From the sequence record PZ357121.2: 64,000 nt of DNA; one strand, 5' to 3'. The notes under the pieces are model-generated. The model was not told where the DNA came from and did no database searches. It was given only the letters and a program-made list of their open reading frames with translations. Made by a program: the position numbers and the translations under genes. This document shows, in pieces, positions 2,864 to 49,412 of the stretch (positions within the stretch are counted from its first letter, which is position 1; every line of letters begins with the position of its first letter). This DNA comes from a phage.

Positions 2864-4548
2864 TAGATTCGTTCCCATTGATGAGTGATATCGCCACCGA
2901 TTGGACGATAAGAAACACCAGTTTCTTTATCAGTTAGTACCCATTTACCAGGATTTTTTGTAATCAGAGTAGCCGTTACAGGTTCTGCTACATCATAACT
3001 AATAGTGCCGTCCTGAAGTACACGGCCCATGTTACGTAATTGCTTAGTCAGAAGTTCCATACCTTTATAATATGCGGCTACCGCTTTAAGTGGATTATTC
3101 TTGAAATAACCACCTAATGCAATCCAGATAATTGCCACTGCCAAATGATGATACTCGTTAAACGAACTCATCTTTCCATATTTGTAAACTAACGGATTGA
3201 TGTTAATAGTCACATTACAAGTTGTTTCATCAATAGTAAACTGTCCCCAAGTCGGATTAGCGTTGAATTCATCATAACCTGAAACAGCGTAAAGCACTTT
3301 AGCTTCATCATACAATTTTGGCCCATAAATCTTGGTTTCACCAAAATATCCACGAGGGTCGATAAACTTGACTTCACCATTATCAGTAATCATAGTATTA
3401 CTGAAGTTCGGGTCACCATGAATAACAGAGTACTGTCCCTGAGAACGGTTATGATAACGAATAAGGTGTTCTAAAGCTTGTTTCAACATTGGCTTCAGAC
3501 GCCCAATCTTAGTGTAGTTCACATGTGTGATTTTACCAAATGAATCAATCAATGGTTGAATACTTTCACAACGATCAATAACTTTAGTATAGAATTCTTT
3601 AGTGAAATCACGACGAACAGTTTCAGGACTTACAAAATAAGTGTCTGTGCTGAATTTCAGTGCATCTAAAATTGCATCAACAATTTGTGGACGAGCAAGA
3701 CTTGATTTGGATTTAATATATTCAAATGCCGGCTTACCTTTAATGCGTTCCATTTCAAAGTTATTTTCATTAACAGAAACTAACTGAGGAACTGAATCTG
3801 ATTTCACTTTAAGATACCATGAAATCTCATCTTTCTGAAGAGCTCGGCCCTGTTCGGTTAATGCGAATTTAGTTACAGTTTCTTCACCAATTTCAACTGC
3901 ATTAAAACTACGATTAAGTTCACGAACTTCATGAGCTTTTTCAAGTTTAGGCATATCACCTAAATCAATTAGATTCATAAGCTCTGATTTATTGAATGCG
4001 CTGCCGTAAAGGAATTCTACGAAATCACGTCCTTTGCAGTATTCATGAATTTCCTCATCAGTAGAACCCATATAGAATTCCCAGTCTTTGAACTGATAAA
4101 TTCCTACAACATTACCACCTGTTGAACCTACATTAGTGATATTTTCACCGTCGAAATTATATCGACATTCGTCACCCTTAACATAGATTGCGTTAACATT
4201 CCAAGACCACGAACCAAAATCAGGAATAATATCACACCAGTTAACAATTACATTATGGCCGTCTAAATCTTTGTGCAATTTAGCAAGAGCATAAGCAGAA
4301 CCATACGCTTCATCAACTGTACGAATAGTCACATTGAACCCTTCTTGCTCACAATAAGCTCGAACAGTTTCAGCAAATTTTGAATGAACTACTACAATAA
4401 TTTCATCTGCGCCAAGGTCAGAATAAATTGTATACAAATTGCTCAGAATAGTGTCTTGTTTATAGTTAACAAGCACCTTAGGAATATGATGCGTTATTGG
4501 ATACAAACGAGTTGCCAGTCCAGCACCAAGAATAACAGCTTTTTTCAT
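2863..4548 (-). CDS. bifunctional sugar-1-phosphate nucleotidyltransferase / sugar kinase
   Basis: 561 aa; N-terminal NTP-transferase motif ILGAGLATRLYPIT..PKVLV; C-terminal APH/choline-kinase-fold motifs IHGDPNFSN and FIDPRGY; SD GAGGA. Confidence 0.85.
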   Translation of the reverse strand: MKKAVILGAGLATRLYPITHHIPKVLVNYKQDTILSNLYTIYSDLGADEIIVVVHSKFAETVRAYCEQEGFNVTIRTVDEAYGSAYALAKLHKDLDGHNVIVNWCDIIPDFGSWSWNVNAIYVKGDECRYNFDGENITNVGSTGGNVVGIYQFKDWEFYMGSTDEEIHEYCKGRDFVEFLYGSAFNKSELMNLIDLGDMPKLEKAHEVRELNRSFNAVEIGEETVTKFALTEQGRALQKDEISWYLKVKSDSVPQLVSVNENNFEMERIKGKPAFEYIKSKSSLARPQIVDAILDALKFSTDTYFVSPETVRRDFTKEFYTKVIDRCESIQPLIDSFGKITHVNYTKIGRLKPMLKQALEHLIRYHNRSQGQYSVIHGDPNFSNTMITDNGEVKFIDPRGYFGETKIYGPKLYDEAKVLYAVSGYDEFNANPTWGQFTIDETTCNVTININPLVYKYGKMSSFNEYHHLAVAIIWIALGGYFKNNPLKAVAAYYKGMELLTKQLRNMGRVLQDGTISYDVAEPVTATLITKNPGKWVLTDKETGVSYRPIGGDITHQWERI

Positions 4549-4729
4549 GTTGTGGTCCTCATTGGTAAGTAGGAGTATTGTACACTATTCTAGTTAAAGC
4601 ATTCATACTTTGCTTGTAGTCCAATCATAATCCATCCGATTATAAGAGTCGGAATCATTACTGGAGCCGTTAAGCTCCAGTAGATAGTCATGACAAGCAT
4701 CAATAGTAAAAGTCCTATTGTTATTGCTT

Positions 4730-5365
4730 TCATTGTTCGCCTCGTAACATGGCACCTAGTGCACCACCAGGGTGGAACTTAAGGAAGTCATTAGAGGTAA
4801 ATCCACGTTCAGACGAAAGGTTGATAGCAAACGTATCGATAAGCGCTAACAACAATGTAGTGGACATGGTCGGAGCCAGAGAATTCTCATCAACCTCTAC
4901 TGCGATGCCTGTACAGAACGTATAATCAAAAAGAGCTTCGTATTCTTGTGGAATGTCCGGGTTACAATGCAACAGAATCTGTTTGACGTTCGGACGAATC
5001 ATTTTAAGATGCTTAGCCACGCCTATCATTTCTTCAGTTTTACCAGAACGACTAATATGAATCAACACATCATTAGGCGCAATGAATCCTGCATCACCGT
5101 GAGAATAATGCCCAGTGTTCAAGTACATACTCGGGATACCAAGTGAAGCAAATGTCTCAGAAGCTTTAGTTGCAATATTAGCATTCTTACCAACACCTGT
5201 AATAATTACTCGGCTTTCATAATTACTAAGTCCTGGGCGTCGAAGAGTTTCTAGAATAGCATTATAACGAGCAGGGTTTTGACTAATTACTTTGGCCATA
5301 GCGGCCAAAGAAGAAGCTTGTTTTATGATTGCGTCAATAGCGATAGTAATAGGAGTAGTTTTCAT
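4730..5365 (-). CDS. SIS-domain arabinose-5-phosphate isomerase (KdsD/GutQ/KpsF type, no CBS domains)
   Basis: 211 aa; motifs GVGKNANIA, HGDAG, ISRSGKTEE, LAPTMSTT, FHPGGALG parallel E. coli KdsD. Confidence 0.85.
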   Translation of the reverse strand: MKTTPITIAIDAIIKQASSLAAMAKVISQNPARYNAILETLRRPGLSNYESRVIITGVGKNANIATKASETFASLGIPSMYLNTGHYSHGDAGFIAPNDVLIHISRSGKTEEMIGVAKHLKMIRPNVKQILLHCNPDIPQEYEALFDYTFCTGIAVEVDENSLAPTMSTTLLLALIDTFAINLSSERGFTSNDFLKFHPGGALGAMLRGEQ

Positions 5366-43325: not shown

Positions 43326-43784
43326 TTATAGGAGGGTAGTGAGCACCTTATATAATGATTTGCCCATTACATATTCCCATTGAGAAGGTTTAATTAAAGC
43401 GAATGCATCAAATTCAGGAATCTGTCGTCCGTCTGGGAACGTATGATAGGAATTACAAACACTGTTTCTGAATTGCTCGTGCTCTACAGGGATGGTATAT
43501 AAGAACAGATGAATATTCTTATTGTCTGAGTAACGATGTTCACCTAGGTCTTTCAGGAAGGCAGGGTCATATTGTGTAAACCCAGTTTCTTCTTCGCATT
43601 CACGAATAGCGGCTTCGATAGGAGATTCACCGGGCTCGACACGGCCTTTAGGAATATCCCACCGATGAGCTAAAGAACCTTTAGGACGAGAACCAGTTAC
43701 ACGGCCCATGAATAACTCTTTATCTTTTGTCATGAAGATAATACCAGCTGATAGCTCTTTCACTTTATTTTTCTTACTCATCAT
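43326..43784 (-). CDS. nudE: Nudix hydrolase NudE
   Basis: Nudix box GRVEPGESPIEAAIRECEEETG; next to e as in T4. Confidence 0.85.
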   Translation of the reverse strand: MMSKKNKVKELSAGIIFMTKDKELFMGRVTGSRPKGSLAHRWDIPKGRVEPGESPIEAAIRECEEETGFTQYDPAFLKDLGEHRYSDNKNIHLFLYTIPVEHEQFRNSVCNSYHTFPDGRQIPEFDAFALIKPSQWEYVMGKSLYKVLTTLL

Positions 43785-44260
43785 CTCAAATTCCTGCATT
43801 CGGTAATAAAATGTTCAACTTCATTATTCTTGGCCTTTATCTTGTCTTTATGATCTTGTAAACTACTTTTAATAAGATTAATAATGATGGCGGCGGTACC
43901 GCCGCCAATGATGCCACCAACAACACTTATGATACTAGATGCTAATAAGATAGCAATAATATCAACAAAACCGAAAGAACTCACCTTAGTACTGAAAAAC
44001 CATATAGACGGTACAAATATAATCCATCCTGTTATCCATTGGCACTTATTGAAAAACCTTTCAAGCTCAGCTTGAGTTGTTCGTATTACTTCATCGATAG
44101 GTTGATATCCATTAATGTATCTGTTCACGATAATACCTGCTGGCTGGTCGATTTTAAATTCTTGACAAATATGTTTCACTAAGTAGGATGGACAGGATGT
44201 CCAATCTACTGAATAGTATGAAATACCTTCATTGCCATCGTCTATATTATTGTTAATCAT
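43781..44260 (-). CDS. membrane protein (C-terminal FITECR junction motif)
   Basis: 159 aa; TM segments; ends ...EHFITECRNLR. Confidence 0.55.
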   Translation of the reverse strand: MINNNIDDGNEGISYYSVDWTSCPSYLVKHICQEFKIDQPAGIIVNRYINGYQPIDEVIRTTQAELERFFNKCQWITGWIIFVPSIWFFSTKVSSFGFVDIIAILLASSIISVVGGIIGGGTAAIIINLIKSSLQDHKDKIKAKNNEVEHFITECRNLR

Positions 44261-44946
44261 TACCAGCCTTCCATAGGGAATTCCAGATAAACTTGAGCAT
44301 TGACACGAATTTCATTGGTAATCTTTTTAACTCGGTCTGTATTACGAGATACACGTCCGAACCAACGCCATCCATTACTAATTGCACGAGAACCAGTGTG
44401 CCATGTTTGCCAATCAAACTGAAGAAGAGTACGATCTGGAGCTTCCCATTTCTCTAGTTCACCTTTTTCGATTTTTTCGAGGACTTCTTTGTGCCACTGG
44501 CGATAGATAAGTTCGCCATCAGGAATCTGACCGAACTCTGCAGTTCCTGTTGCAAAATGAGTAGGACACACATCAGCGTTAACAAGACCAAGAATATGTT
44601 CAGAATGGTAACGAGGGTTGTCATAATCAGGTTGTCCTGCAGTAATAAAGTGTTGACCGGCTGGAATATCAGGGCGTGGTACGTCATCATGGTGATATCC
44701 AGGAATAGCAGGATACCAACCAGGCATCAACATGTGAACTCGTGAATCAAATACTACATCCGAGTCTTTCCAATCGCCAGGAAGATTTTGGATAAAGCTA
44801 CGAGTAATTGGACCGCCATTATCAAAAGCAAAATTCAAATCGCAGTTAAAGAACATAGGCTCGTTTTTAATCTGGTCGTTTTTAATCGCGTGAGCAAAAC
44901 CACCTACTGCACGAGCTTGGCTATTAAACACTTTAGAACTATTCAT
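44260..44946 (-). CDS. hypothetical protein
   Basis: 228 aa ORF; SD GAGGAAAA. Confidence 0.6.
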   Translation of the reverse strand: MNSSKVFNSQARAVGGFAHAIKNDQIKNEPMFFNCDLNFAFDNGGPITRSFIQNLPGDWKDSDVVFDSRVHMLMPGWYPAIPGYHHDDVPRPDIPAGQHFITAGQPDYDNPRYHSEHILGLVNADVCPTHFATGTAEFGQIPDGELIYRQWHKEVLEKIEKGELEKWEAPDRTLLQFDWQTWHTGSRAISNGWRWFGRVSRNTDRVKKITNEIRVNAQVYLEFPMEGW

Positions 44947-44947
44947 A

Positions 44948-45253
44948 TTATTTTCCTCGACATTCTTTAATGAAATTTTCTAGATTGGTAGATTCAATAG
45001 CTTTTTTACGAGCTTCTGCGTGTTCTTCTTCAGACAATTTACATTTATAATTGACCCAGACATTATGGTCGAAACTAGTCGTGGCATATAATAACAATGC
45101 TCCAACGAATAGCAAAAACGGCGATAAGAATACAAAACCAGGAACACCATCCATATCGTAAGCCTTTTGTAATACTGCAACAGAAAGAGCTGCGTAAAAA
45201 GGTGATGCAAATATTGTTAAAAGACCAATTCGGTTGGTTTCGCCTAATTTCAT
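44948..45253 (-). CDS. membrane protein (C-terminal FIKECR junction motif)
   Basis: 101 aa; two TM segments; ends ...ENFIKECRGK; PeSL promoter upstream. Confidence 0.55.
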   Translation of the reverse strand: MKLGETNRIGLLTIFASPFYAALSVAVLQKAYDMDGVPGFVFLSPFLLFVGALLLYATTSFDHNVWVNYKCKLSEEEHAEARKKAIESTNLENFIKECRGK

Positions 45254-45273
45254 AATATTCTCCTCATGTTTTA

Positions 45274-45311
45274 ATAGGACTACTATAACATAGTCCTATC
45301 ATGTTGTAAAC
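45274..45311 (-). promoter_or_regulatory. early promoter with palindrome (PeSL-type cassette)
   Basis: ATAGGACTA-CTATAACA-TAGTCCTAT then tgtaaac. Confidence 0.55.
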
Positions 45312-45323
45312 AGTTTTGCGAAA

Positions 45324-46280
45324 CTATTTGAAAGGTTTTACCATATGGAAATTTTGTTTGAAACGTTTGACGTAATCATCATGTCCTAAGCTTTGATACA
45401 TACTTACTACTTTGCTGTAGTTTTCCCAGGCATACTCACGGAACCAGCCGGAGGTTATGCTTGTGCAGACTTTTTCTAATGCTATCATAAAACTGGCTTC
45501 AGGGTTAATTTTAAAGTCATTAGGAATCTGAGAACGTTCTAATGCTAGTACACATGATTCTTCGTATACGCCGGCCAATTTGACCATTTCTGGCAATGAT
45601 TCAAACTTCTCGCGTGAGGTCATGACTTCAGAACCGTCTTTCATATAAAATGTATACGCTGGACGGTCTGTTAGTGCAATGGCTTCATGAATAGTATCAT
45701 GGTCGTATGTATAGATGTCATCTTTAAAGAACGCACTTTTAGAAGTGTCAAGAACTGGGTGAGCATAGTTCAAGGTTTCTTTCTGGCGTTTCAGCATAAT
45801 TTCAGTAAGTTCATCGTTCAGTGTAACACCTTTACCACGAAGATACTGAATATGGTTCATAGTCTTTAAAAAGAACGGATTATTTTTCTTGAAACGATGA
45901 GACATCTTAATTGCAAGACATATCTCAGGAGTTGCCCAGTAAAACCCATTCAAACGGTCTTTAGACAAATGTTTCTTGGCGTATTTTAAAAGGTCATAAG
46001 AAGACGTGAAATCTTCAGGAGTGAGTTCACCGACTAATTCACGGACATTAGTGATTGCCGGAACAATATACGCTTCAAAATGAGTTTCGCGTCCGTTATG
46101 GAAGCATTTGAAAACTTGGACATCAGGGTTATCTTGATGAACATATACACCCATCATTTGATTTTTGAATGTATTCCAAGAACCTTGGTCTGCAATAAAG
46201 TCCCAGTCACTATTTTTGATAGCGTTAGAATCAATAAGACCATGATAGTGAAGTGCACGAGAACCAATAACTAACATCAT
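45324..46280 (-). CDS. hypothetical protein
   Basis: 318 aa ORF. Confidence 0.65.
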   Translation of the reverse strand: MMLVIGSRALHYHGLIDSNAIKNSDWDFIADQGSWNTFKNQMMGVYVHQDNPDVQVFKCFHNGRETHFEAYIVPAITNVRELVGELTPEDFTSSYDLLKYAKKHLSKDRLNGFYWATPEICLAIKMSHRFKKNNPFFLKTMNHIQYLRGKGVTLNDELTEIMLKRQKETLNYAHPVLDTSKSAFFKDDIYTYDHDTIHEAIALTDRPAYTFYMKDGSEVMTSREKFESLPEMVKLAGVYEESCVLALERSQIPNDFKINPEASFMIALEKVCTSITSGWFREYAWENYSKVVSMYQSLGHDDYVKRFKQNFHMVKPFK

Positions 46281-46308
46281 AATATTTTCCTCGGATTAAT
46301 TCATTAAC

Positions 46309-46548
46309 TTAAATTTCACGACATGCGATATCATATTCATCCCAGAGGTCATCGTGTGAAGCCTCTACCAATGGAACGATTGTACCATTTATGTCTTCAT
46401 TATAAGGGCAAATTGTACAGTGCGCATCTTCGAATCGAATGCCTTTGTGTTCAGATTTTTTATAACGCATATCGAATATCTTTGCAAACTTTTCACGAGT
46501 AATGGTTTTAGCAACCACTTCGGTTCCAACACTTTCGTAATAAATCAT
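46309..46548 (-). CDS. hypothetical protein
   Basis: 79 aa ORF; PeSL promoter upstream. Confidence 0.55.
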   Translation of the reverse strand: MIYYESVGTEVVAKTITREKFAKIFDMRYKKSEHKGIRFEDAHCTICPYNEDINGTIVPLVEASHDDLWDEYDIACREI

Positions 46549-46567
46549 TGTGGACTCCGTTTAATTT

Positions 46568-46606
46568 GATAGGACTACTATAACATAGCCCTATCTTGTT
46601 GTAAAC
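46568..46606 (-). promoter_or_regulatory. early promoter with palindrome (PeSL-type cassette, one mismatch)
   Basis: GATAGGACTA-CTATAACA-TAGCCCTATC then tgtaaac. Confidence 0.5.
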
Positions 46607-46610
46607 TGTT

Positions 46611-46808
46611 TTAGCAAGAATAACTAGATGATACCCAGCCTTGAACAGTAATACTATTATTTGATACCGAGATCGCGTTCTGGAGATTCAGGCCTGCGTT
46701 ATCTTCAATCCACAATGTAACTTCTTCGCGTTCTTCTGTTGCAATTTGGAACAGGTTTTCTAGGGCAGCTACTGCCGTACGTACAGCACAATCTAATTCA
46801 CGAGACAT
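46611..46808 (-). CDS. small protein, paralog family member 3 (C-terminus GWVSSSYSC)
   Basis: 65 aa; shares MS(K/R) start, TTAAGGAA RBS junction and W-[VI]-[SA]-S-S-x-x-C terminus with two upstream paralogs. Confidence 0.55.
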   Translation of the reverse strand: MSRELDCAVRTAVAALENLFQIATEEREEVTLWIEDNAGLNLQNAISVSNNSITVQGWVSSSYSC

Positions 46809-46817
46809 ATGGTTTCC

Positions 46818-47090
46818 TTAACAAGTGTGAGAAGATGCGATCCAACCACCAGTTTCGAGGCTCAGGTTGTAGTCGTATTGGTAAACATCAGCCCATTCAG
46901 CATAGCCGTTTTTTGTACAACGTTCAAGATCGGCTTTAAGTTGTCCGGGTGAATGATAGGTTCCACCCATACCATAAGCTGGACACAAGTCGAATGTTGT
47001 GTTTTGTTTATCAGCAATTTCTTTGGCAGCCTCAATAGCTGCATAGATTTTTGCTACGGCTTCAGCCAGTTCGGTTTGTTCTTTAGACAT
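46818..47090 (-). CDS. small protein, paralog family member 2 (C-terminus GWIASSHTC)
   Basis: 90 aa; see paralog family. Confidence 0.55.
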   Translation of the reverse strand: MSKEQTELAEAVAKIYAAIEAAKEIADKQNTTFDLCPAYGMGGTYHSPGQLKADLERCTKNGYAEWADVYQYDYNLSLETGGWIASSHTC

Positions 47091-47099
47091 AATGATTCC

Positions 47100-47405
47100 T
47101 TAGCACAACGCAGAAGACGAAACCCAAGCACCTTCAGTAATAACGTAACCATTACCTTCACGCTTAACATCGCCACCATTATTTTCAATTTCATCTTTCA
47201 TCCACTGGGATACGATTTCACCCTTAGGATAATAAGTACGACCGCTACCATAATCACCTACAGAAAATGATACGGCGTATTGGTCTGCGATCTTTGTTGC
47301 TTCTTCTTCGATACGTTCAGCTTGATTCAGAAGTTTATAAATTGCATCTGAAGCGGATTTGGCATCATTAAACTCTGGTACTTTAATTTCAATAATCTTA
47401 CTCAT
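47100..47405 (-). CDS. small protein, paralog family member 1 (C-terminus AWVSSSALC)
   Basis: 101 aa; see paralog family. Confidence 0.55.
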   Translation of the reverse strand: MSKIIEIKVPEFNDAKSASDAIYKLLNQAERIEEEATKIADQYAVSFSVGDYGSGRTYYPKGEIVSQWMKDEIENNGGDVKREGNGYVITEGAWVSSSALC

Positions 47406-47761
47406 TTTCTACATTCCTTAATAAAGTTTTCTATTGTTTCATTTTCACGTCTAGCTAGGAGTTCATTATAACTAATCATTTGAGAAGCGTAAACCTTTTT
47501 ATTTTTCTTGTTATGGTTTATAAAATCGTAGTAAAAATAGACTACAGTACAAAATGATGCGATGGATGCAAAGGCTTGGGTATACCGTAAGTCCTGCCAT
47601 TGGTCTGTGAATCCACCAGTGTTCCCTATAAATCCTAACACAACGCCGTCAATAAGAAATCCAACTAATCCAAAGGCAAATCCCATGCCAATACTCATAA
47701 TAAAAATTAGAATGTTCTCACCAAGAGAAGGCCATACGGTTAAGAGTTGAGGCTTTTGCAT
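47402..47761 (-). CDS. membrane protein (C-terminal FIKECR junction motif)
   Basis: 119 aa; TM segments; ends ...ENFIKECRK. Confidence 0.55.
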   Translation of the reverse strand: MQKPQLLTVWPSLGENILIFIMSIGMGFAFGLVGFLIDGVVLGFIGNTGGFTDQWQDLRYTQAFASIASFCTVVYFYYDFINHNKKNKKVYASQMISYNELLARRENETIENFIKECRK

Positions 47762-48135
47762 CTTATTTCCTTAACGAATTCCATAGCTTCTTCATATTCA
47801 TACTTTTTAACAGCTTCGTCATACTGAGCTTGGGCTTTTGCGCACTGAACTTTCCATTCTCTTAATCGGGCTCTGTGATGACGTCCTTGGTGCCAATATC
47901 CTGCCCAATTAATAGGCATTAATAAAAATGGTACAATAAACGACCCGGCTATAATAAGTAAAAACACTGCATCAGACGATATAACTTCACTAGAATCTAA
48001 AATAGCTCCTATAATCATAAAGATTAAAAATGCTAAAGCTAAAATAGGGCCAAATAGTACTTCATTTGGGATTAATTTACGCTTGTATTCATACGCCCAG
48101 GGCTTACTTGGCATGTATAGGGTTGGCTTTGACAT
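47740..48135 (-). CDS. membrane protein
   Basis: 131 aa from ATG 48135 (MSKPTLY...); RBS lies in the FIMECR-coding junction of the upstream gene. Confidence 0.5.
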   Translation of the reverse strand: MSKPTLYMPSKPWAYEYKRKLIPNEVLFGPILALAFLIFMIIGAILDSSEVISSDAVFLLIIAGSFIVPFLLMPINWAGYWHQGRHHRARLREWKVQCAKAQAQYDEAVKKYEYEEAMEFVKEIRCKSLNS

Positions 48136-48700
48136 ATTCTCTACATTCCATAATAAATTGCTCAAGGATTAAATTGTTAGTGAAATTAGGACTAACAACC
48201 ATGGTTTCATAAAGCGCATCAATAGCACTTAAAGCATCAACTCTTTTAAGCAAAGGCTTGCCTTCATACATAGTTTCAGAATCGACGATTAACGTAAAGT
48301 AATATTTTTTATTATCGACTAGAACTTCAGTATCGATATAAAACATGTTAGACCTTAAGAGCTTATCTCTAAAACCATAATAATCTTCAGAGCGTTCGCT
48401 GATATAGTCCCGTTCAGTGTTTAAACAACAAACAGACCATGTAGGAGCAACAAAATCAGTGAATCTAATATCATGGTCTGCAACTAGTTTAGCAATAGCT
48501 CCGATATCATGAATCATAATACCTGGGGCTAATAAAGATTTTCGGCGATTTGCATATTCAGTTGTCTCATAAGAAGACGACCAGTACCATTTACGTCCAG
48601 TTGCAACATATCGTAATGAATCAACTAAAGAAGTAGGTGGATTTACCTTATTTCGGAACTCTTCGAACATTGAGTCAATATCATTATTTTGGTTTCGCAT
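48104..48700 (-). CDS. hypothetical protein
   Basis: 198 aa from ATG 48700 (MRNQNNDIDS...), SD AAGGAG. Confidence 0.6.
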   Translation of the reverse strand: MRNQNNDIDSMFEEFRNKVNPPTSLVDSLRYVATGRKWYWSSSYETTEYANRRKSLLAPGIMIHDIGAIAKLVADHDIRFTDFVAPTWSVCCLNTERDYISERSEDYYGFRDKLLRSNMFYIDTEVLVDNKKYYFTLIVDSETMYEGKPLLKRVDALSAIDALYETMVVSPNFTNNLILEQFIMECREYVKANPIHAK

Positions 48701-48748
48701 GTTAACTCCTTTATTATCCAAAGGAGGACCGGAGTCCTCCGTATTATT

Positions 48749-49342
48749 TTATTTCAAAGAGTTAATATATTCTTGTACATCAGCAGAAGTGGTTTCGACA
48801 CCAGCTGGAGCGCCATTGAACGTTTCAACACGAGTCAGAGTGTCTTCGATATCAACCTTAGTCAGTGCAGCGATTTCAATTACATCGTCAGCCGTAGAGA
48901 TACCAAGGGCATTAGCTGCTCGAGTTTCACGAATGTATTCGAGTTTGATTGCCAGATTCTGACGAGCATCGTCAAGTTCAACAACCTTACGAGCAATTTC
49001 AATTCGCATAGCGGCATACCCGTCAGCTTTTGTATTAAGTTGTTCAGCCGTTCGACGATACAGAAGACCAAGCTTAGCATGCATGGTAACATCTTGACCT
49101 TCAGCCAGGAGCTTACGAATTTCACGTTCCTTAGAAGCGGCTTGCTTATTCTTTTCATTAACAAGTTCGCGAATACGTTTTTCTTCATTAATAGATTTAA
49201 CAGAAGCCGTTTTTAGTTCTTTGATTTGGGTAATCAACTTATCTGCAGCTGCGTTATACTGTTCTTCGACAGTCAGATTTTTAGCCATAGCAGTACCCAG
49301 TTTAGTGCGGATGAATTCAACAAGTTTCTTCAGTGTGTTCAT
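48749..49342 (-). CDS. coiled-coil protein with PspA/IM30-like features (tentative)
   Basis: 197 aa from ATG 49342; amphipathic N-terminal helix then long charged coiled coil in a PspA-like arrangement. Confidence 0.5.
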
Positions 49343-49412
49343 ATTATTACCTTTCAATTGGTGGTTTATTATCCAATGAGAGCATTATACTCTGCTCTCA
49401 AGAGTTTGTAAA

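Follow-up and report, generated by a model that had tools for sequence, protein, structure and literature searches.

Arrays of small acidic phage proteins with an invariant C-terminal Ser-Ser-x-x-Cys tail and their linkage to a downstream DUF7277+DUF7275 gene

We analyzed a 64,000-nucleotide stretch of phage DNA (sequence record PZ357121.2; the whole stretch is referred to below as the window), in which three consecutive small genes encode proteins with closely similar C-termini. The earlier note on this DNA had described these genes as encoding proteins of 101, 90 and 65 aa that start with MS(K/R), and the listing of open reading frames (ORFs) supplied exact coordinates for all of them, on the minus strand, together with the expected ends (Table 1). 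We found that the three proteins belong to a family defined by an invariant C-terminus, G-x-W-x-[S/A/P]-S-S-x-x-Cys-COOH (hereafter, the tail), and that arrays of one to six tail genes form a near-obligate two-part module with a downstream gene on the same strand, which encodes a protein of ~310 aa composed of DUF7277 and DUF7275 (hereafter, the enzyme). The observation on the small genes is real, and it is broader than the earlier note held. What is new here is the linkage between the tail and the enzyme, which appears to be undescribed in the literature and databases searched; the enzyme was already known as two domains of unknown function (DUFs), and PHROG families of unknown function were known as well.

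Linkage of the tail genes to the DUF7277+DUF7275 gene

In the window, the enzyme gene lies 331 bases downstream of the third tail gene on the same strand, and Pfam recognizes in its 318-aa product DUF7275 (E 1.2e-78) and DUF7277 (E 3.2e-27). Each of the three small proteins has a significant profile match, the Cys-last motif and an upstream position on the same strand, which places all of them in the tail family. The same order, tail genes followed by a same-strand gene of 300-320 aa, was found in RB69, JS10, a Karamvirus, a Marfavirus, and the Aeromonas phages 31 and CC2. The module occupies different sites in these genomes (by nrdD in Aeromonas phage 31, near rnlA in CC2, in the e.3-e.2 interval in RB69-like phages), and its two parts are always together. 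The distant small proteins P0060, P0093, P0190 and P0072 are encoded zero to two genes upstream of a DUF7277+DUF7275 gene, and P0114 directly upstream of a truncated one.

The enzyme is present in 734 GenBank phage records from many genera (tblastn) and in 209 IMG/VR stretches. For example, two to four ORFs ending in W..SS..C stand beside it in Phapecoctavirus anhysbys, phiPsa347, Acinetobacter phage Apostate and Stenotrophomonas phage Mendera, and a tail ORF adjoins the full-length enzyme in 12/12 loci taken from named phages and from contigs of metagenome-assembled genomes (MAGs). Among 185,579 prokaryotic species genomes, there were eight enzyme loci, all on MAG contigs, with a tail ORF directly upstream in seven and a degenerate version of it in the eighth; since all these contigs are MAG contigs bearing tail ORFs, they are probably phage DNA.

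An important distinction of retrieval anchored on the enzyme is that it is free of the circularity inherent in a search with a tail profile. We fetched 80 IMG/VR loci in this way; these are the best-scoring ones and are biased to relatives of the RB69 enzyme, with identities down to 38%. At least one tail ORF was found in 77 of them, with copy numbers from one to six. The total of 197 tail ORFs comprised 141 strict matches, 44 members of a shorter subtype (SCYGEG...W.SSC) and 12 ORFs recognized only by the family hidden Markov model (HMM). All 197 were on the enzyme strand, 194 were upstream of the enzyme gene and 194 were within 2.5 kb of it, whereas none of 2,880 opposite-strand ORFs matched the tail pattern. 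In an assumption-free clustering of the genes that neighbour 22 enzyme loci on the same strand, broad recurrence was limited to the enzyme (22/22) and the tail family; no third conserved gene of the module was found in these 22 loci.

The small proteins could also be independent early effectors, acidic and akin to anti-restriction or DNA-mimic proteins, with a tail that binds metal or a host target and an enzyme that is merely co-inherited or co-regulated. Small acidic proteins of the early-gene region are typical of phage host-takeover genes, and promoter-like sites are present at this locus. However, the linkage holds over very distant phages and genomic positions, with the constant strand and the almost constant upstream placement given above. 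The complete genome of the Pseudomonas phage phiPsa347 (99.7 kb, 950 frames of at least 45 aa scanned) contains only four tail ORFs (ends 83429, 84502, 84828 and 85517), all in an array that takes up the 2.2 kb upstream of the enzyme start at 85598; there is no tail ORF elsewhere in this genome, and no other gene is so linked. In addition, a single conserved Cys would hardly suffice for a metal site within one monomer. We therefore regard independent effectors as improbable.

The earlier note had proposed a search for the family in other T4-like phages. The family was found there, and it is also present in the BASEL phage Bas47 (AlbertHofmann); however, "T4-like" turned out to be too narrow a scope, since the module extends to Phapecoctavirus, Otagovirus, Menderavirus and many uncultured phages, and the corresponding locus of T4 itself is without it.

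Two enzyme loci, L060 (Enterobacter phage CC31, about 3515-4576) and L099, have complete upstream flanks and no recognizable tail ORF. In CC31, the interval that holds the tail genes in a sister Karamvirus has no same-strand ORF of at least 45 aa.

Conservation of the tail at the protein level

Pairwise BLASTP of the three proteins aligned local segments only, in keeping with the remark of the earlier note that the central regions diverge. The overall similarity is weak, and the aligned segments always take in the tail (28% over 54 aa, E 2e-4; 44% over 16 aa, E 3e-4; 32% over 37 aa, E 2e-3). The invariant positions of the three-way alignment include W94, S97, S98 and C101, and a scan of all six frames of the 64-kb window found W.[SAT]S[SAT]..C-stop in these three ORFs only. 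Using word-indexed searches, we identified orthologues of each paralogue in Mosigvirus, Dhakavirus, Karamvirus, Marfavirus and Aeromonas phages; in an alignment of 18 sequences the W, both Ser and the terminal Cys are invariant, and the middle varies in length and sequence.

A family profile of 12 sequences was searched against 1.84 billion cluster representatives (50% identity, E up to 1e-3) and gave 171 matching clusters, nearly all of them 73-175 aa long and aligned to the very end of the profile. One match, P0115 (953 aa), was rejected as a false positive; it is a helicase with repeated HA domains. The exact end W-x-[SAPT]-S-[S]-x-x-C was present in 130 of the 143 small representatives, and eight more had one extra residue. 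Within the 130 exact tails, the W, the Ser at position -4 and the terminal Cys occur in all, and the Ser at -3 in 127. Gly predominates at positions -9 and -8, and a [YFW]GxG segment is found in 134 of the 143 small representatives. It should be noted that the conservation of the tail in the 171-cluster set is partly circular, because the search profile contained the tail.

The shared ends would require no protein feature if they were a DNA-level by-product of a conserved gene junction that combines a stop codon with a ribosome-binding site, which was the refuting scenario of the earlier note. The sequence TG[CT]TAAGGAA-N5-ATG is indeed common to two of the three genes and stands at both internal boundaries of the array; after the third gene there is an early-promoter-like site in its place, so that the shared junction reported in the earlier note holds for the internal boundaries only. 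Furthermore, an unrelated C-terminal motif nearby, FIKECR, does overlap the Shine-Dalgarno sequence of the following gene. However, the tail is kept where junctions, Ser codon families and stop codons are all different. Among 38 distinct tails, each Ser position is encoded by both TCN and AGY, the Cys codon is TGT in 21 and TGC in 17, and the stops are TAA in 28, TGA in eight and TAG in two, with different sequences beyond; the TAAGGAA..ATG type of junction is restricted to T-even-like phages. The tail is likewise invariant over the 143 representatives of 50%-identity clusters. The variation in codons and stops and the conservation over cluster representatives refute the junction artefact, to which we assign practically no probability. 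The tail is under protein-level selection.

We also observed a sister subfamily of ~75 aa, SSCYGEG...W-x-(S/P)-S-S-C, in which a Cys directly follows the Ser run and a second Cys is conserved. This subtype, which accounts for the 44 shorter ORFs mentioned above, occurs in the same arrays of many phages and is absent from this window; six of its loci are included in Table 1. Another tail-like stretch, GRKWYWSSSYE, which is internal and without Cys, was noticed in the e.5 homologue of the window; the family HMM does not match this protein, and the stretch may be due to chance.

Properties and origin of the small proteins

For the tail proteins, the median length is ~87 aa and the median net charge about -8 to -9. 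Only one Cys is conserved, and the median number of other Cys residues in the 143 representatives is zero. An AlphaFold2 (AF2) model of the 101-aa protein, built from the 12-sequence alignment, has a mean predicted local distance difference test score (pLDDT) of 86.5 and a predicted template modelling score of 0.72; it contains a long helix (residues 15-43), a short helix and four short strands, with W94 in the last strand and the final residues forming a short turn. No analogue of this predicted fold, a long helix plus a small sheet, was found in the PDB. The small proteins have no match in Pfam, NCBIfam or PADLOC, their PHROGs matches are families of unknown function only, and no paper or solved structure was found for the family. 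The small proteins are phage-specific, strongly acidic and, as modelled, folded.

In JS10 (Dhakavirus) and Potts1 (Marfavirus), each of the three paralogues has an orthologue in the same order, accompanied by additional members; therefore, the duplications predate those genera. Judging from this gene order, the three genes are paralogues of ancient origin within a phage-specific family and a recent triplication is ruled out, so that of the tandem triplication seen in the earlier note the three consecutive paralogues remain and the recency does not. The third paralogue differs from the others in the alignment by having no central YGxG segment.

The earlier note had considered that the terminal Cys could mark lipidation. 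This possibility is not supported by the proteins themselves, which have no signal peptide or lipobox; their N-termini are polar (MSKIIEIKVPEFND, MSKEQTELAE and MSRELDCAV), the conserved Cys stands at the very end, and we are dealing with soluble, acidic proteins for which a fold is predicted. Metal binding, also considered in the earlier note, may occur but gains no support from the one conserved Cys.

Conserved residues and possible family of the enzyme

Alignment of 26 enzyme homologues revealed the following invariant or nearly invariant positions: G6, S7, D25 (E in two of the 26), D27, K125, H128, K139, H194, D195, H198, E240, E241, E248 and R249. All 22 forms linked to a partner have, in addition, an acidic residue (E/D) at position 69, R129 (K in one), C272, S277 and R281. 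Three short forms (~250 aa) without nearby tail genes, from Streptomyces phage Wakanda, Gordonia phage Cucurbita and KVP40, are missing the position-69 segment and have V/I at 272, K at 277 and a substitution of R281; the DSS3_PM1 form is intermediate.

The N-terminal pattern hhhGSxA...DhDhh...hEh is similar to that of Pol-beta nucleotidyltransferases, with a GS-DxD spacing of 17 residues. The C-terminal H...HD..H...EE is reminiscent of a metal-dependent phosphohydrolase; H128, H194-D195, H198 and E240/E241 are invariant, and no Pfam HD match was obtained. By its signature, the enzyme may be related to Pol-beta nucleotidyltransferases, and a similarity to known members is unsupported by profile searches. 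Pfam returned the two DUFs only for the enzyme, and NCBIfam and PADLOC returned nothing; neither the enzyme nor the small proteins matched MNT/HEPN modules in Pfam, NCBIfam or PADLOC. No paper on DUF7275 or DUF7277 was found, and the literature leads were limited to general nucleotidyltransferase and RlaP work.

A different explanation is that the enzyme acts on RNA or a nucleotide in the manner of RlaP or CCA-adding enzymes, with the tail proteins serving as non-covalent regulators, inhibitors or specificity adaptors. The acidic tail proteins could mimic nucleic acid and dock via an unmodified tail, which is in line with their strong negative charge. RNA ligase genes are found close to enzyme homologues in CC2 and DSS3_PM1, and phage Pol-beta nucleotidyltransferases tied to RNA repair are already known (PMC7824862, PMC12776372). 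The short enzyme forms occur without a tail protein, so the catalytic core does not need tail proteins. On the other hand, regulators and antitoxin-like partners are usually single-copy, whereas here there are one to six divergent copies with the tail alone in common; the enzyme does not match PF10127 (RlaP; 0/11 for the window enzyme and 10 homologues, E up to 10) or other Pfam nucleotidyltransferase families, and proximity to RNA ligase genes is not general among the loci. Taken together, we consider an enzyme acting on RNA or a nucleotide rather unlikely, though well worth keeping in view.

The tail as a possible site of modification

Several divergent small genes with one invariant end, next to one enzyme gene, have the layout that we infer would be expected for multiple substrates; with several divergent partners per enzyme, substrates fit better than antitoxin-like inhibitors. 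Our preferred explanation, which we put forward tentatively and with a little less than even confidence, is that the tail is a handle by which the enzyme recognizes, and probably covalently modifies, every member of the array. Pol-beta-type nucleotidyltransferases transfer groups containing a nucleoside monophosphate onto hydroxyls. If the nucleotidyltransferase-like signature is real, the Ser hydroxyls (or the Cys thiol) would thus be the likeliest acceptors. The shared tail would be recognized by the DUF7277+DUF7275 enzyme in each member, and the divergent bodies may then assign different targets or roles to the individual members early in infection. The modification might be nucleotidylylation, attachment of a nucleotide-derived group, or cyclization, and would produce enzyme-activated "tail-tagged" effectors. 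The wider proposition, that large lytic phages carry an unrecognized modification pathway in which the DUF7277+DUF7275 enzyme covalently modifies the Ser-Ser-Ser-x-x-Cys ends of a diversifying array of effectors, is possible, but we hold it as doubtful.

Several observations weigh against modification of the tail by the enzyme. First of all, no modification of the tail has been observed; the suggestion of the earlier note that the Ser-rich Cys end may mark processing or modification gains indirect support from the near-obligate linkage to an enzyme gene. In the folded model, W94 is part of a strand, so that part of the motif may be structural and not a modification site. The linkage has exceptions: tail ORFs are absent from three of the 80 enzyme loci (the contig of one of them, L113, ends within the upstream flank), and on a 3-kb contig the tail protein P0137 was seen without the enzyme. 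The covariation of enzyme residues with the presence of the partner involves one clade of short enzymes only and could be phylogeny. The nucleotidyltransferase assignment derives from a short motif and from depositors' labels such as "putative nucleotidyltransferase" for the Acinetobacter phage versions; the GS-DxD spacing exceeds the 9-13 residues of the classical motif, and the short forms are without the third acidic residue. Pfam hmmscan at E up to 10 gave no nucleotidyltransferase, HD or RlaP match for the enzyme. The full-length enzyme profile retrieved from PDB sequences the RNase L KEN domain alone (E 0.076, non-significant), the profile of the N-terminal domain retrieved nothing relevant, and in hhalign comparisons of the enzyme with E. 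coli Cca and GlnE the probabilities stayed below 1%. A single-sequence AF2 model of the enzyme was unusable (pLDDT 37).

Modification of the tail has a special case that resembles the maturation of ribosomally synthesized and post-translationally modified peptides: a tail Ser would be converted to dehydroalanine and the terminal Cys would add to it, yielding a cyclized C-terminus on a folded protein. The S-x-x-C-COOH spacing is that of lanthionine and aminovinyl-cysteine (AviCys) rings. Here, the third Ser and the terminal Cys are invariant at i and i+3, the Cys is last in 130 of the 143 representatives, and several precursor-like genes stand beside one enzyme gene. However, no gene of the LanB, LanC, LanM or LanD type belongs to the module, which has no other third conserved gene either, and a Pfam search of the window genes from 43329 to 49357 detected no dehydratase, cyclase or decarboxylase of these types. 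The proteins are 65-175 aa long and predicted to be folded, as described above, and have no leader-plus-core layout; in eight representatives a residue follows the Cys. We consider such cyclization very improbable.

If the tail is a mark written by the enzyme, it would represent a new, widespread post-translational system in phages, would provide a role for two Pfam domains of unknown function and for PHROG families of the same status, and would account for the retention of arrays of tiny early genes in T-even relatives. Even without modification, the invariant tail and the neighbouring enzyme make a clean two-gene module for work on anti-defence, RNA repair and host takeover.

Layout of the locus and neighbouring genes

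The region of the window shares 97.8% identity with Escherichia phage RB69 and up to 99.2% with other Mosigvirus phages, and the source phage is of the RB69-like T-even type. In RB69, the counterparts ORF139c/138c, 137c and 136c are located in the e.3-e.2 interval, on the strand that carries the early and middle genes, and all of them are annotated as "hypothetical". The e-to-tRNA region of T4 has neither tail genes nor the enzyme gene, and e.3 directly adjoins e.2; therefore, RB69-like phages carry an extra block of ~3 kb here relative to T4. The coordinates of the features are given in Table 1.

Table 1. Coordinates of the tail genes, the enzyme gene and other features (ORF listing for the tail genes; junctions read from the sequence)
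Feature	Sequence	Coordinates	Strand	Description
Tail-family paralogue 1, 101 aa	Window	47405..47100	minus	MSK start, GAWVSSSALC end; phrog_899 E 1.3e-22; family HMM 1.1e-37; counterpart RB69ORF139c + ORF138c
Tail-family paralogue 2, 90 aa	Window	47090..46818	minus	MSK start, GGWIASSHTC end; phrog_899 E 1.1e-17; family HMM 1.1e-26; counterpart RB69ORF137c
Tail-family paralogue 3, 65 aa	Window	46808..46611	minus	MSR start, QGWVSSSYSC end; phrog_4882 E 1.6e-36; family HMM 1.9e-15; counterpart RB69ORF136c
Partner enzyme gene, 318 aa	Window	46280..45324	minus	DUF7277 + DUF7275; counterpart RB69ORF134c
Gene between array and enzyme, 79 aa	Window	46309..46548	minus	RB69ORF135c, phrog_3723; tail motif absent
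Junction 1	Window	47105..47088	minus	TGC Cys codon, TAA stop, Shine-Dalgarno-like GGAA, next ATG
Junction 2	Window	46823..46806	minus	TGT-TAA-GGAAACCAT-ATG
Early-promoter-like site	Window	46605..46577	minus	TTTACA-17-TATAGT, with TG; consensus scan only, which is not evidence of function
Second early-promoter-like site	Window	45282-45310	minus	TTTACA-17-TATAGT, TG before; just after enzyme gene
e.2	Window	43781-44260	minus	Ends HFITECRNLR
ORF133c	Window	44948-45253	minus	Ends NFIKECRGK
e.3	Window	47402-47761	minus	Ends NFIKECRK
e.4 homologue	Window	47740-48165		Looser FIKECR-type end
e.5 homologue	Window	48104-48721		Looser FIKECR-type end
Tail-like stretch in e.5 homologue	Window	48575-48589	minus	GRKWYWSSSYE, internal
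SCYGEG subtype	L003	5012-5236
SCYGEG subtype	L004	4294-4527
SCYGEG subtype	L005	2148-2372
SCYGEG subtype	L006	4286-4504
SCYGEG subtype	L007	4250-4477
SCYGEG subtype	L019	2413-2631

The gene between the array and the enzyme, ORF135c, is lineage-specific and outside the conserved module; in the clustered neighbours of enzyme loci, it had a BLASTP counterpart in JS10 only. The early-promoter-like site after the third tail gene is located ahead of ORF135c and the enzyme gene, and a second, near-identical site follows the enzyme gene. These paired promoter-like sites suggest separate early transcription starts, one for ORF135c and the enzyme and the other for ORF133c.

In the RB69 reference (NC_004928; locus stretch 4801-5107), a frameshift breaks the 101-aa gene into two ORFs, ORF138c of 33 aa and ORF139c of 71 aa. 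The RB69 stretch that matches window positions 47100-47405 exceeds the query by one base, consistent with a 1-base indel. An intact gene is present in 127 records with at least 99% identity, and the split in RB69 reflects either a mutation in the stock that was sequenced or an error of sequencing.

The products of the membrane-protein genes e.2, ORF133c and e.3 have another C-terminal motif in common, [E/N]-F-[I/V]-x-E-C-[R/K], which is unrelated to the tail; the looser versions in e.4 and e.5 are listed in Table 1. Ends of this type are numerous in Karamvirus, Marfavirus and Dhakavirus loci (e.g., EEFITECRGK, RFIKYCRGK and ETFIKECKS). The e.3 codons ATT AAG GAA also contain the Shine-Dalgarno sequence of the next gene, so the FIKECR motif may be partly shaped at the level of the DNA.

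Some annotations of this region are questionable. In the HX01 RefSeq record NC_018855.1, the small genes of the region corresponding to window positions 46300-47800 are labelled "major capsid protein" and "tail completion protein"; the ORF135c homologue YP_010246901.1 (83 aa) is among these evident misannotations. The e.4 homologue, a small membrane protein (positions 2941-3336 in phage vB_Eco_F27), is called "sulfurtransferase" in some records, and the window version has no Pfam match backing this label.

Comparison with known systems

Lanthipeptide and AviCys precursors are similar to the present system in having several precursor-like genes and one enzyme gene, and in the Ser-Cys spacing of i, i+3. 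Unlike these precursors, the tail proteins are acidic and have a predicted fold, and their conservation lies in the N-terminal helix and the tail instead of a leader; no lanthipeptide synthetase or decarboxylase family was detected here. Two other systems share features of the C-terminus. LysW is a small acidic protein whose conserved extreme C-terminus (EDWGE) is a covalent attachment point, and in HypE the terminal Cys is a swinging arm that is part of the enzyme itself. The likeness is confined to the conserved extreme C-terminus (LysW) and the terminal Cys (HypE). There is no homology, LysW is a zinc ribbon that works with ATP-grasp ligases, and neither is known as a diversifying phage array.

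CitX and MdcG, which have the nucleotidyltransferase fold, attach a nucleotide-derived prosthetic group to a Ser of a small acidic carrier (CitD or MdcC) encoded nearby. Here, too, a small acidic protein is encoded beside a gene for a putative nucleotidyltransferase-like enzyme; however, the acceptor Ser of those carriers is near the N-terminus of a helical acyl carrier protein, and genes for citrate lyase or malonate decarboxylase are absent from this locus. RlaP (PF10127) is a widespread Pol-beta-type RNA-end nucleotidyltransferase of large phages and bacteria that was long uncharacterized (PMC7824862, PMC12776372). It differs from the present enzyme in that the window enzyme and the 10 homologues are not recognized by its profile, and RlaP is not known to be accompanied by an array of tail proteins.

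The systems GlnD-PII, GlnE-glutamine synthetase and MntA-HepT share with this module the layout of a GS/DxD-type enzyme encoded beside a small protein partner, a signature that comes here from sequence only. GlnD acts on PII and GlnE on glutamine synthetase, and hydroxyl side chains are the expected acceptors. GlnD consists of a nucleotidyltransferase domain and a His/Asp-rich (HD) domain, an architecture that the DUF7277+DUF7275 protein may resemble. MntA is a Pol-beta-type nucleotidyltransferase that modifies its partner protein HepT (PMC7641770). The present module has no sequence or profile match to these systems, and no HEPN, PII or glutamine synthetase-like partner. In those systems the modified residue is a Tyr on a single partner, whereas here there are one to six divergent partners, each with a Ser-Ser-Ser-x-x-Cys end.

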